Assembly: GCA_964552565.1 (NCBI GenBank)
Contig: CAZKGL010000001.1
Coordinates: 567,060 to 626,815, forward strand
DNA from: an uncultured Gammaproteobacteria bacterium
GTDB lineage: Bacteria; Patescibacteriota; Patescibacteriia; UBA9934
Direction: 5' to 3'
Length of the DNA: 59,756 nucleotides
The notes beneath the pieces were generated by a model. It worked only from the letters and a program-made list of their open reading frames with translations. It was not told the origin of the DNA and ran no database searches. Every line of letters begins with the position of its first letter. Within the stretch, counting starts at the first letter, position 1. The position numbers and the translations under genes were made by a program. Shown here piece after piece: positions 4,101-27,133 of the stretch.

Positions 4101-4502
4101 GTTTCTTTGAAAAAGTCGGGATATTACGTGGTGCAATCATACCAGTTTGAGGCCGTTTAATAAAATAAGTTGTCCGCAGTGTTTGAGCGGGTACAGAGAC
4201 TCGAGGAATGTTCGGTTTTTTTTAATGCCGGAGGGACTTAAAATGCGTTATAAATAACGCATGAGTTTGTACGGCTTGCGACTATAAGCGCAGGATATTA
4301 TACTGTCACTACAATTGAGCCTAAACCAAGCGTTTCCACGTTCGGCATGGCACTTAAACCCAACCAGGATACTGAACCCGTCGTTCAGCAATCCTGGTTG
4401 GTCGTACCCCGAAAGGGGTGCGTTGTCCCGAAAGGGGCAAAAGCTGGCGGCGGGCTTTGTGTTTGCCGACAGTCGAATAAACACCCAACCAACCAGGGTA
4501 AT

Positions 4503-17488: not shown

Positions 17489-17517
17489 TTGACAAAACTC
17501 ATTTTTTCTGCTATCCT
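17489..17517 (+). promoter_or_regulatory. Sigma70 promoter with extended -10
   Basis: TTGACA-17 nt-TATCCT, TG upstream of the -10. Confidence 0.75.
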
Positions 17518-17674
17518 ACCCCGTTCGTGGAAACCCTTGGAGGAGGGTCTTCTCATGGAGTTCGGGCATCCTGCACGAACTGCACCGGGAGATCCCTCCC
17601 AACGGAAGCATGCCGGTCCCGCAAGGGCACGGCAGGCACGGTACTCGTGCGCATTCGCGCCAAGGAGACACACC

Positions 17675-18748
17675 ATGACCACCGAAACCGCCGGCACCGC
17701 CGGCACCGACGAGACCATCGACCCCGGCGCCCTCGCGGAGCCGACCGTCGCGTGGATCAAGCTCGAGATGCCGGAGGGCTTCGCCCGCGGCGTCGTCGCG
17801 AAGCGCATCGGGGACCTCAAGGGCAAGGCGCTCACCTGCCGCATGGCGGTGACGGAGCTCCTGGCCCACGCCGACAACCGCACGCTCCTCACGATCCTCC
17901 ACGAGATGACCCTCGGAAAGCGGGGCGCCAAGGACAAGGGCCTCGCGACCTTCGCGCGCTGCGTCGAGAACGAGGTCGCGTGGCGGGCGGAGGACGTCGA
18001 CGCCTGGGACGCGCTCAAGGGGCTCGCGGACATCATCAAGGTCCCGATCCTCGCGGTGAAGGACTCCGGTGAGCTCGAGAAGCCGGTCGAGGCGTTCAAG
18101 CGCATCGCGGACGCGCTCGCCAAGGATCCGACTTTCGGATCCCAGGCCGAGTCCGTCGTCGCGAAGGCGAAGGCCCGCAAGGCCCACGCCATCGTCTGGA
18201 TGCCCGAAGTCAGCATCACCGACGAGGTCGACTACCACCAGCGCCGTACCCGAGCGCGCCTCATCCTCGGCGCCCCCTTCGGCAAGCTGACGCCGTGCCA
18301 GAAGTCGGCGCGGCAGATCCTCGAGGCGATCGTGGAGGCGTCGGGCCGCAAGCCCCGCCGCATCCTCCTCGCCGCCCGCCGGCTCAGCCGCAAGGCGAAC
18401 ACCGGCGACCAGGAGGGGCTGCTCCGCGTCCTCGACGTGGTCTTCGAGCAGGAGGCGGCGCACAGCAAGAGCGCCGACATCCGCACGAAGCACGGCGTGC
18501 TGCTCGACGTCGCCCGGAAGCTCTCCACCAAGGAGAAGCCGGTCCACCCGCAGCAGTTCGTCGGCGACGAGTACGAGCCCCTCGAGTCCGCAGCCAAGCG
18601 TCTCGTGATCCTCGCCGGTCTCCACCGCAACGAGATCATCAAGAACGCGAAGTCCGCGATCGAGGCCCAGCTCCTCGCGGCGAAGCTCAGCGAGGCGCCG
18701 AAGGAGGAGGACGAGGAGGAGTCCGACAGCGCGAGCACCGGTTCCTGA
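17675..18748 (+). CDS. Orphan helical K/R/A-rich protein (357 aa) with acidic tail
   Basis: AGGAG RBS, very high GC3, no recognisable motif. Confidence 0.8.
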   Translation: MTTETAGTAGTDETIDPGALAEPTVAWIKLEMPEGFARGVVAKRIGDLKGKALTCRMAVTELLAHADNRTLLTILHEMTLGKRGAKDKGLATFARCVENEVAWRAEDVDAWDALKGLADIIKVPILAVKDSGELEKPVEAFKRIADALAKDPTFGSQAESVVAKAKARKAHAIVWMPEVSITDEVDYHQRRTRARLILGAPFGKLTPCQKSARQILEAIVEASGRKPRRILLAARRLSRKANTGDQEGLLRVLDVVFEQEAAHSKSADIRTKHGVLLDVARKLSTKEKPVHPQQFVGDEYEPLESAAKRLVILAGLHRNEIIKNAKSAIEAQLLAAKLSEAPKEEDEEESDSASTGS

Positions 18749-18789
18749 CACCGGTTCGGAAAAGTCAGCGTGCGGGGTAGAGCGAACGG

Positions 18790-19160
18790 CTCCCCCAAGC
18801 GTGCTGCACGATCGTGTGATCGTGCAGCGTCGCCCAAAACCCATGAAGCGATTCGTGGAGTTCGGGCGACAACGGTCGCACCCACCAATGTGGAGGAGAG
18901 AGATGATGCGGCGGACCTATGAGAGTAGGTCCATCGCATCGGTCCCAGAGTGCACGACTAGGCTCCGGCTTACTCGTCGCACATCTTCGGGGCCACGGCG
19001 CACATCGTCCTCGGACCGATCACTGCACCCCTCGCTTCCACATTTGTGGGTATTCCGCTTGTTCTCGGGCAAAAAACGTGCTAGACCATTGTCGGGAGAA
19101 GCGTTCGTTTCCCCCAACACGGTGCGCGCGAGATTTACTCGCGCGTCACTGGCCCGCCAA
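18790..19160 (+). ncRNA. Candidate multi-domain structured RNA
   Basis: 11-bp perfect stem, GCGA and GAGA tetraloops, 16/17 long-range helix (18880-18896 with 19035-19051); strand and ends uncertain. Confidence 0.5.
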
Positions 19161-19185
19161 CAATCCACGCAGGGGTTCCTCACCC

Positions 19186-19506
19186 ATGTTCCTTCACGAT
19201 GCCACCGTCCAGCATCTCATCACCCACCCCGAGGCCATCGAGGCGCGCTGCACCCGCGGCGACGACCCCGAGCACGAGCGCCACATGAAGGCGCTCGCCG
19301 CCCTCGACTTCCTCGCGCACGCGAAGGAAGCCGGCGAGACGGAGATCCTCGACATCGAGGACGCCGAGGAGGAACCCGAGGTCGAGTTCGCGCTCAGCAA
19401 CGCGCTCATCGCGATCATCGAGCAGCCCCTCACGGTCCCGATCTACGTCGCGTCCGACGAGGACCGCGCCCGCATCGCGCGGGAGCTGGCCGACCTGCTC
19501 GGGTGA
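19186..19506 (+). CDS. Orphan acidic protein (106 aa)
   Basis: High-GC3 ORF after the structured region. Confidence 0.7.
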   Translation: MFLHDATVQHLITHPEAIEARCTRGDDPEHERHMKALAALDFLAHAKEAGETEILDIEDAEEEPEVEFALSNALIAIIEQPLTVPIYVASDEDRARIARELADLLG

Positions 19507-19596: not shown

Positions 19597-19627
19597 CACA
19601 AAAACTCCCTCACCGGGAGTTTTTGTG
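19597..19627. terminator. Bidirectional terminator
   Basis: CACAAAAACTCCC-TCACC-GGGAGTTTTTGTG between convergent genes. Confidence 0.75.
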
Positions 19628-20131
19628 TTCGGTGATATCGCGCCCAACGATGATGCGAACGAATCGTTCCGCGCGGTGCAGTCGGATAAGTTTCGTGAGG
19701 ATGGCGCCGACGTCCCGATTCGTTCGCCAGACGCTTTTTTGGATTCGTTCACCATTCATCGCGTGAAGAAATCGTGAAAGCGCACGTCGTGCAACGCGCC
19801 GATCTTCTGGGATATCAAAGATGACGAACACCCAACGACCGACAGGAAGGATTTTCGTGCAACGAGCAGCTTCCCGCACGATCGCATGATGCCGGCCAAG
19901 AAGTGTAATCCCCACTCGGATCAAATCTCCTCGACCGGTGAAGCGGATGAAGCCCTGTTGTTGCAATGACCGTAATGCGCGTCGCCTTCGATGACGCTCT
20001 TTCTCTTCGACCCTTCTCTGCTTTCGACTGACACGACCCATGACGGCGCTAAAATCCGGTCGCTCGAATGCGCCATCGAGAAAGGCAAGAATTTCGTCAA
20101 AGACTTTTTCCGTCGTTGATTTTGCTCTCAT
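19610..20131 (-). CDS. PaaX-like regulator with Cas2-like (VapD-type) C-terminal domain
   Basis: wHTH-like N-terminus; VIFDIPE..IQKSVW motif; no array or cas genes nearby. Confidence 0.75.
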   Translation of the reverse strand: MRAKSTTEKVFDEILAFLDGAFERPDFSAVMGRVSRKQRRVEEKERHRRRRALRSLQQQGFIRFTGRGDLIRVGITLLGRHHAIVREAARCTKILPVGRWVFVIFDIPEDRRVARRALSRFLHAMNGERIQKSVWRTNRDVGAILTKLIRLHRAERFVRIIVGRDITEHKNSR

Positions 20132-20200
20132 ACCAAACGGACACTTATCGTCCGATCGGACAATAAGTGTCCAAAGTGATTATGACGTACGAGATGCTCG

Positions 20201-26083: not shown

Positions 26084-27133
26084 CTACTTGCCGACGTACC
26101 CGCGCAGCACGTTGCCCGGTTCGATGCGCATCGCCTGGGTCGCGGCGCGTTTCCGCAGCATTGCGGGAACCATGAACGGGGCGCGGATGAGCACCTTGCG
26201 CGTTTCCGGCTCAAAAAGCAAGCCATAAAGCACTCGCCCGGTTTCGTGGAACGCCATCCACGGCGCGGCAAGGAGCGCATCGACGAATGTAAGGTTTTTG
26301 AGGAGCACGAACAACTGGTTGCGCGTCCCGAGTGCGGCAAAGAACGGCCGTTGCCGCGTGCGGTTCGTCAGGCGTTGCCAGAGCGTCTGGCGCTCCGCCC
26401 CATACATGCCCCGGTAGTGCCACAGCTTTGCCTGCGGCACGAACGCGGTGCGATACCCGGCCGCCCGTGCGCGCCAGGCAAGGTCGCAGTCCTCGCGATA
26501 GGCAAAAAAGTCGCCATCGAACAACTCGCCGTCGATAAGGAGGTCGCGGACGGCGCGAGCGCGGAACATCGCACAGGCCCCGCTCGGGCCGAAGACATCG
26601 CGCATGGCGTCGAACTGGCCGGTGTCGATGTCGCCCGCACCGCGCTCCACCATGCGCCAGCCGCGAGTGACGCGAAGGCCGGTGGAGTCGAGGATATCCG
26701 AGCGGACGGTTTCTTCCAGCGACTCATCGCCGACGTGCTCGCCAAACGCGCGGTAAATTTTCGGCTGGACGATGGAGACGCTCGGGTCGGTGTCGAGCGC
26801 GGCGACCAACGTCCCAACCATCTTCGGGTCAAGGATCATGTCCGCGTTCATGACAAGGATCGCCCAGTCGTCGAGCTCGGACTCCGGAAGATGCTCCAAG
26901 GTAAACCGCACGAGCTGGTTATGGCCAGGCGCAAATCCGAGGTTGCGGACGTTGCGGCCGACGAGCGCATGCGGGACATGCTGCTGCAGGTAGTTAACCG
27001 TTTCCCCATCCGTACTGCCGTTATCAAGGATGCGCACGACGGTGTCCTTGTACTCTTGCGCATCGAGCGACGCCAACAATTCCGGCAAATACCGGCGGTC
27101 GTTCCAGGCCAAGATGTGGATGGCGACGCGCAT
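26084..27133 (-). CDS. GT2 glycosyltransferase
   Basis: DNGSTD, NLGFAPGHN, FAYREDCDL. Confidence 0.93.
   Translation of the reverse strand: MRVAIHILAWNDRRYLPELLASLDAQEYKDTVVRILDNGSTDGETVNYLQQHVPHALVGRNVRNLGFAPGHNQLVRFTLEHLPESELDDWAILVMNADMILDPKMVGTLVAALDTDPSVSIVQPKIYRAFGEHVGDESLEETVRSDILDSTGLRVTRGWRMVERGAGDIDTGQFDAMRDVFGPSGACAMFRARAVRDLLIDGELFDGDFFAYREDCDLAWRARAAGYRTAFVPQAKLWHYRGMYGAERQTLWQRLTNRTRQRPFFAALGTRNQLFVLLKNLTFVDALLAAPWMAFHETGRVLYGLLFEPETRKVLIRAPFMVPAMLRKRAATQAMRIEPGNVLRGYVGK

Follow-up and report, generated by a model that had tools for sequence, protein, structure and literature searches.

The window analyzed here, a 59,756-nucleotide stretch of a bacterial contig, encodes a previously undescribed structured RNA of about 315 nucleotides (18737–19051, plus strand) that extends from the stop codon of an orphan open reading frame (ORF) located upstream. 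The RNA is non-coding, conserved, structured and plus-stranded, and is physically tied to this lineage-specific ORF. It consists of three parts, namely, a pseudoknot that encompasses the stop codon (18737–18768), a three-hairpin domain (18774–18870; domain 1) and a four-way-junction domain (18880–19051; domain 2). An initial annotation, made from the sequence alone, had proposed a fold of about 370–430 nt that would be either a novel large non-coding RNA or a very long cis-element. The folding analysis, covariation and Rfam searches described below support this general assignment, but the extent had to be revised: the conserved RNA is only about 315 nt long and starts earlier than proposed, in the last codons of the upstream ORF. 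The features of the locus are the following:

17489–17517, plus strand: orphan-gene promoter, with TTGACA and TATCCT on either side of a 17-nt spacer that ends in TGC; found in all seven loci at a fixed spacing
17675–18748, plus strand: orphan ORF, 357 amino acids, predicted all-alpha protein rich in charged residues; GC3 about 0.95
18737–18768, plus strand: H-type pseudoknot (pairing from alignment A8)
18774–18796, plus strand: hairpin P1a, in which GGGG and CCCC flank a UNGA internal loop and an inner stem of variable sequence
18803–18828, plus strand: hairpin P1b, a perfect 11-bp stem (18803–18813/18818–18828)
18829–18870, plus strand: hairpin P1c, GCGA-capped, GUCGCCC-AA-AAC-CCAUGA...UCGUGG-A-GUU-C-GGGCGAC
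18880–19051 (172 nt), plus strand: domain 2, a four-way junction of helices H1–H4
18880–18900/19031–19051, plus strand: H1, closing helix of about 20 bp
18905–18940, plus strand: H2, stem 18905–18919/18926–18940 with a GAGA loop
18941–18994, plus strand: H3, a long hairpin with bulges and a UNCG loop that reads UCCG or UACG
18997–19029, plus strand: H4, with a CUCG loop
19052–19065, plus strand: U-rich tract directly 3′ of H1, which may be the 3′ end of the RNA or a weak terminator
19059–19087, plus strand: promoter-like box, TTGTTC and TAGACC separated by 17 nt whose last bases are GTGC
19091–19185 (about 95 nt), plus strand: putative 5′ UTR of the small acidic gene, with hairpins at 19091–19118 and 19119–19151 followed by a Shine-Dalgarno region
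19186–19506, plus strand: small acidic ORF, 106 amino acids, pI 4.4; GC3 0.96

The 436-nt interval between the two ORFs folds with a minimum free energy of −221.3 kcal/mol on the plus strand, compared with −160.6 ± 5.7 for dinucleotide shuffles (z = −10.65), and none of the 100 shuffles folds as well. The reverse strand of the same interval folds less convincingly (z = −7.04), and the 315-nt unit taken alone folds with z = −9.9 (window) and z = −10.3 (L031, one of the homologous loci described below). Apart from the better z-score, the assignment to the plus strand is supported by four invariant G–U pairs of domain 2 that can form on this strand only. Both flanking ORFs have a very high GC3 (about 0.95), and codon periodicity is lacking throughout 18750–19185. 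Domain 2 has 56 variable columns, located mostly in stems and divided 19/17/20 among the codon phases. On either strand, each of the reading frames is interrupted by a stop codon in at least one homolog. An invariant GGAGG followed by AUG within H1 looks like the beginning of a mini-ORF with a Shine-Dalgarno sequence; this candidate was rejected because the frame ends early, at codon 3 (L001, L003) or codon 12 (L031), and a 1-nt deletion disrupts it in L004. Several generic hallmarks of a conserved structured non-coding RNA are present here: absence of coding, folding beyond that of shuffles, covarying helices, and strand asymmetry.

Relatives of the locus were found through the orphan protein, three by word-indexed searches of 5.8 billion clusters and three more when 1.84 billion representatives were searched exhaustively with a profile; the four of the seven clusters that were looked up contain a single member each. 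In the Logan assemblies, these correspond to six further distinct versions of the locus (one truncated at the end of its contig), so that, together with the window, seven loci were compared, all from one narrow clade with conserved synteny. The source runs include SRR12113420/22, SRR22388xxx, SRR22216xxx, and SRR17380409. The gene order is the same in all: holB (minus), the orphan gene (plus), a non-coding gap of about 340–465 nt, a small ORF (plus), and the genes for TrmB, GT4, and MreB (all minus). The strain of the window is present in two additional sequencing runs, with an identical RNA, and its genes are reminiscent of those in uncultivated bacteria with small genomes. At the protein level, the identity to the window is 51–64% for holB and 27–58% for the orphan protein in the same genomes from which the RNAs were compared; a multiple alignment puts the orphan protein at 25–60%, with the lowest values at 25–30%. 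The RNA-bearing gap is much better conserved than the flanking genes (alignments A1, A4, and A6). Given that the RNA stayed nearly unchanged while the neighboring proteins drifted to 25–60% identity, the RNA itself must matter functionally. The position of the RNA is fixed between holB and TrmB in all seven loci, it is present in a single copy in the window, and its start coincides with the stop codon of the orphan ORF, or lies no more than 1 nt away (L030), in seven of the seven loci. The RNA co-occurs with the orphan gene in every locus and was found nowhere without it. The gene immediately downstream differs in L004 and L031, unlike the constant upstream orphan gene.

Beyond these seven loci, neither the RNA nor the orphan protein has detectable relatives. 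A protein scan of the GTDB representative genomes found no relative, and a DNA-motif scan of the same genomes produced one chance match, in a Halobacteriovoraceae MAG, and no true relative. A pattern scan of JGI metagenomes (GGAGGAGAGAGATN{8,20}GAGAGTAG) returned 19 loci, all of which were dismissed as chance purine-rich matches. There was no match among the IMG/VR viral contigs in four pattern scans, in the phage and plasmid collections searched with blastn, or with a chimeric six-frame protein query for mis-called ORFs across the RNA. Literature searches for the source samples and for comparable RNAs gave nothing pertinent and no description of this RNA.

The first element of the RNA is an H-type pseudoknot formed around the end of the orphan ORF. 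In its first helix (S1), ACCGGU at 18737–18742 pairs with ACCGGU at 18750–18755, enclosing the hairpin loop UCCUGAC that contains the UGA stop codon (18746–18748). The second helix is formed between CUGAC of this loop (18745–18749) and GUCAG at 18764–18768. In alignment A8, 97.4% of the pseudoknot cells are paired, compared with 14–39% when the partners are slid. In L031, the stop codon is UAG, with a matching partner GCUAG, and one S1 pair is changed from G–C to A–U; compensatory changes, here and in the helices below, rest on six or seven distinct sequences from one clade, and several, including all those in the pseudoknot, come from L031 alone. The stop codon of the L030 ORF is UAA and precedes the S1 hairpin by one nucleotide, which indicates that it is the structure rather than the stop codon that stays conserved. 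We also considered a programmed frameshift or readthrough and rejected it: there is no slippery heptamer before the pseudoknot, and the stop codon is located inside the pseudoknot, not upstream of it.

The three hairpins of domain 1 differ in how they vary. P1a adopts the same fold in all seven homologs despite differing inner-stem sequences, with the UNGA loop conserved. The sequence of P1b is wholly different between loci, but the pairing is kept, with the six outer pairs formed in 100% of the cells in seven sequences and compensatory changes in five of the six. P1c is nearly invariant in six loci, and L031 keeps only its inner hairpin; L004 carries a second, diverged copy of P1c in which the outer stem is preserved by two double changes. 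This copy is part of a diverged P1b and P1c module (2040–2177 of L004) that occupies the 3′ UTR of an inserted 75-amino-acid ORF with a signal-peptide-like start and directly precedes a TTGCTG-N17-TAGACC box, where the contig ends. The second copy suggests that the P1b/P1c module is able to work apart from domain 2. Near the end of domain 1, GUCGC occurs twice (18829–18835 and 18871–18879), such that GGGCGAC (18864–18870) can pair either upstream, in P1c, or downstream, in a small hairpin GCGAC-AACG-GUCGC. Five further loci have both options, and no covariation favors either P1c or the small hairpin.

Domain 2 is nearly invariant: its length is the same in the six full-length homologs, apart from the 1-nt deletion in L004, and 118 of the 174 alignment columns are invariant, including those in loops, bulges, and junctions. 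The invariant bulged positions include A105, C100, and C143-A144-C145, numbered by the columns of alignment A6. Its 68 pairs are formed in 97.8% of the pair cells, compared with 32–44% in slid controls; 16 of the 68 show compensatory changes, and 0 of 500 shuffles reach the observed value in any of four of the five measures. The initial annotation had listed a set of stems across the region, and a repeat finder recovered all of these in the window sequence. The perfect 11-bp stem turned out to be the covarying hairpin P1b, the GCGA-capped stem corresponds to P1c (18829–18870), and the GAGA-capped hairpin is H2 of the consensus; the long-range helix, which the repeat finder traced over 18880–18905/19026–19051, corresponds to H1. 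Covariation among homologs, one of the checks proposed at the outset, was found in the pseudoknot, P1b, and domain 2. The ATCGGTCCCAG/CTCGGACCGAT pairing is likewise present (18938–18948/19010–19020). The ATCGGTCC/GGACCGAT helix fared differently: it exists in the window sequence and can form in 91.5% of the cells, with four broken cells, but shows no compensatory change and is displaced by H3a, with which it is mutually exclusive and whose pairs covary as C–G, U–G, and A–U. Judging from the alignment, ATCGGTCC/GGACCGAT may be an alternative conformer and is not the supported fold; H3a and ATCGGUCC/GGACCGAU are alternative pairings.

Downstream of H1, the character of the sequence changes. A U-rich run follows H1 in all six complete loci, and a consensus scan gave a weak match at 19052–19065. 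Overlapping its end is the promoter-like box, a candidate sigma-70-type promoter of the small acidic gene, in which TTGnnn and (G)TGCTAGACC are exactly 17 nt apart and the spacer is variable (window, L001, L003, L030, and the second copy in L004). The final base of the −10 element TAGACC is C rather than the usual T, and the consensus scan did not call this box; a TGC precedes the −10 element. This layout, with the fixed 17-nt spacing and TGC before the −10 element, mirrors that of the orphan-gene promoter. The box is followed by hairpins for which RNAalifold predicts, from four sequences, 33 pairs, four of these with compensatory changes. Taken alone, 19052–19185 folds with a z-score of only −3.1; it is confined to loci with the small acidic ORF, is absent from L031, and in L004 is separated from domain 2 by the 75-amino-acid ORF. 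By inference from these sequence patterns, 19052–19185 would be a separate unit that consists of a promoter-like box and the 5′ UTR of the small acidic gene, and most likely not a second domain of the RNA closed by CGGGC/GCCCG, as had been proposed. The CGGGC/GCCCG pairing does exist in the window but is absent from the consensus fold of the four homologs that possess the 3′ part; the 8-bp stem assigned to that domain (19125–19132/19138–19145) is real and sits within the second 5′ UTR hairpin (19119–19151).

The small acidic ORF matches neither Pfam nor PHROG and has homologs only in L001, L003, and L030. These proteins are 98–117 amino acids long (pI 4.1–4.4), share a conserved LDFL..A..GE motif, and belong to no known family, and their ORFs are always preceded by the promoter-like box and structured 5′ UTR. 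Further downstream, the window contains a low-GC island (19600–20200; GC 0.51–0.56, compared with about 0.65 around it) that includes an ORF on the minus strand (19610–20131; 173 amino acids) with PaaX_M/Cas2-like domains. The island is absent at this position in L001, L003, and L030 and, therefore, looks like a recent insertion in the window strain.

The orphan gene has a recognizable promoter with the consensus TTGACA-N17(..TGC)-TAnnnT across the loci. This promoter is followed by a 5′ UTR of about 150 nt (17489–17674 with the promoter, plus strand) that is partly conserved, with blocks such as GCACCGGGAGAU..UCUCCC common to most loci, and may be a second structured leader. In all loci, the 300 nt that precede the pseudoknot contain no promoter-like box. 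Given this lack and the conserved promoter upstream of the ORF, the transcript that bears the RNA likely starts at 17489–17517, and the RNA would most simply extend the orphan mRNA at its 3′ end. An ORF that has a Shine-Dalgarno sequence of its own and no promoter begins no more than about 45 nt after domain 2 in L004 and L031, so that, in these two loci, the RNA appears to be operon-internal, and H1 together with the U-tract would not be an efficient terminator, with termination remaining incomplete. In the same two loci, the last six bases of H1 (GUGGGU or CUGGGU) can pair with ACCCAC or ACCCAG downstream, and this alternative pairing shows a compensatory change between L004 and L031.

The orphan protein contains about 30% charged residues and has a near-neutral pI. 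An AlphaFold2 (AF2) model built from the 7-sequence alignment is all-alpha (pLDDT 80, pTM 0.80); the model obtained with a 4-sequence alignment was unusable (pLDDT 39.7). The protein has no match in Pfam or PHROG, no fold match in PDB or BFVD, and no match for its sequence profile in PDB.

The RNA could not be assigned to any known family. No model in Rfam 15, including OLE, raiA, ROOL, GOLLD, HEARO, riboswitches, small ribozymes, 6S, group I and II introns, and others, matches the RNA at the gathering threshold. At E ≤ 10, the region 18600–19350 yields only two chance matches to snoRNAs, both on the minus strand and outside the core, and the RNA regions of L003, L004, L030, and L031 have no Rfam match at E ≤ 5. 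The lack of RNase P, tmRNA, SRP, and intron signatures that was noted initially is consistent with these searches and with ARAGORN, which detected no tmRNA in the window. The only Rfam match in the entire window is a full-length LOOT RNA (RF03000) at 4318–4439 on the plus strand (81.4 bits, with a gathering score of 46.4), and the only tRNA is tRNA-Ala (GGC) at 26425–26507 on the minus strand.

Two further possibilities were considered and rejected. A group I intron splitting a single gene is incompatible with the upstream ORF being truly stopped in all loci and the absence of a match to Intron_gpI, and the downstream ORFs in L004 and L031 are unrelated. The omega RNA of TnpB/IscB, the IS110 bridge RNA, and retron non-coding RNA were discarded given that neither searches of Pfam, PHROG, and PDB nor fold comparison gave a match for the neighboring protein and that the RNA occupies one fixed syntenic site in seven loci, with a single copy in the window.

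The closest parallels are found among the large "ornate" bacterial non-coding RNAs, namely, OLE, raiA, ROOL, and GOLLD, of which OLE is partnered by the proteins OapA, OapB, and OapC. As in these cases, the RNA described here is large and multi-junctional, is confined to one lineage, shows unusually high conservation of the primary sequence, and adjoins a gene whose protein product has an unknown fold and occurs only together with the RNA, with a role that cannot be read from the sequence. However, it matches none of the OLE, raiA, ROOL, GOLLD, and HEARO models, is shorter, at about 315 nt, is joined to the 3′ end of the candidate partner ORF instead of forming a gene of its own, and, with seven loci, is far more restricted in distribution. 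Moreover, the candidate partner is a predicted soluble all-alpha protein, not a membrane protein. Another parallel involves stable RNAs derived from 3′ UTRs, such as bacterial 3′ UTR-derived sRNAs and the flavivirus sfRNA, in which the xrRNA pseudoknot protects the 5′ end. Here, too, a pseudoknot lies at the boundary between the coding and the structured 3′ part and, by analogy, could mark or protect the 5′ end of a released RNA; unlike xrRNA, it is bacterial and contains a stop codon, and the likeness seen here is one of position, not of sequence or fold. Because all Rfam models fail, we place the RNA outside both the OLE-type and the 3′ UTR-derived families. Like four-way-junction riboswitches, for example those for cobalamin, domain 2 has a junction with invariant nucleotides closed by a P1-like helix, and its 3′ side may pair in more than one way, but the RNA matches no riboswitch model, follows a gene rather than preceding one, and lacks constant downstream genes.

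The explanation that we favor, tentatively and with low confidence, is that the RNA is a stable product of the 3′ UTR of the orphan gene and partners the orphan protein. Transcription would start at the 17489–17517 promoter, with 18737–19051 as the 3′ continuation of the orphan mRNA, and the 3′ part would persist as a stable RNA once the coding part has been degraded or cleaved away, with the pseudoknot as its protected 5′ end and H1 plus the U-rich tract as its 3′ end. The RNA would then be a sequence-specific partner, most probably in a particle with the protein encoded upstream. We infer this combination of co-transcription, processing, protein partnership, and trans action, in preference to the alternatives, from four features: RNA and orphan gene strictly co-occur, the RNA begins at the stop codon, its closing helix is long, and its unpaired nucleotides are conserved far beyond the needs of pairing. 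The adjacency to the orphan gene, however, could be mere inherited order, because the loci come from one narrow syntenic clade; a fast-evolving protein next to a near-static RNA is unlike what would be expected of a tight sequence-specific interface; and the RNA appears operon-internal in L004 and L031. The latter observation fits better with the main rival, possible but on the whole unlikely, under which the RNA stays in the mRNA as a cis-acting 3′ UTR or intercistronic element that controls operon stability, termination, or translation of a neighbor, possibly through an alternative-pairing switch or ligand sensing. Such an element would lie within the transcription unit, and terminating ribosomes must unfold the pseudoknot that overlaps the stop codon. 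Also in keeping with this rival are the alternative pairings (GGGCGAC with the two GUCGC sequences, and the end of H1 with ACCCAC or ACCCAG in L004 and L031), the wide retention of the ATCGGTCC/GGACCGAT pairing, and the U-rich tract after H1. Yet, the downstream genes in L004 and L031 are unrelated, with the promoter-like box of their own placed elsewhere, so that a cis-element would have no constant downstream target; nearly invariant sequence over some 315 nt far exceeds what stabilizing or terminating the mRNA of a fast-evolving orphan gene would require; and no known riboswitch family matches.

An autonomous RNA acting in trans, either a ribozyme or a lineage-specific housekeeping RNA whose position after the orphan gene is historical, appears improbable. 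The conservation of loops, bulges, and junctions is at the level of catalytic or machine-binding RNAs, and the compact multi-helix junction with the stable GAGA and UNCG tetraloops and an H1 that resembles a processing stalk would suit such a role; nevertheless, no promoter of its own was found, the RNA is seen only alongside the orphan gene in the seven loci, and Rfam 15 has no match to it (RNase P, tmRNA, SRP, 6S, introns, and small ribozymes included). More doubtful still is a single RNA of about 430 nt that would span the whole interval between the stop codon and the following start codon and include 19052–19185 as a true second domain. The folding z-score of the whole interval and the conservation of the 3′ part, with covarying hairpins, in four loci are compatible with this possibility, as is the P1b/P1c copy that precedes the 3′ part in L004 and hints at a link between the parts, but the absence of the 3′ part from L031, the ORF intervening between it and domain 2 in L004, its modest folding on its own, and the lack of conservation of CGGGC/GCCCG all argue against it, and half of the supposed domain is promoter-like, with fixed spacing and a variable spacer. 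Finally, the notion that the region has no function as an RNA, being a set of chance palindromes, a DNA-level site, or an unrecognized coding sequence, is close to refuted: the SD-like GGAGG and AUG in H1 are invariant and, in the window, one frame crosses the region without a stop, but this frame is broken in L001, L003, L031, and L004, substitutions show no codon periodicity, compensatory changes and G–U pairs are strand-specific, and no shuffle folds as well.

Large bacterial multi-junction RNAs with nearly invariant loops are rare and, to our knowledge, those with solved roles are ribozymes, riboswitches, or the cores of RNA–protein machines. A bold and rather improbable extension of our favored reading is that domain 2 would be the core of a new RNA class, as a ribozyme or an RNP subunit, with the all-alpha orphan protein as its dedicated partner and the pseudoknot as a device that would both release the RNA from its mRNA and protect it. 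The RNA comes with a covariation-backed secondary structure and a candidate partner protein of unknown fold. It begins with an element that wraps around the stop codon of the gene before it, an unusual arrangement by which translation termination is linked to RNA folding in a directly testable manner. The lineage is uncultivated and is seen only in raw-read assemblies, which indicates that RNAs of this kind are still missed by family libraries.
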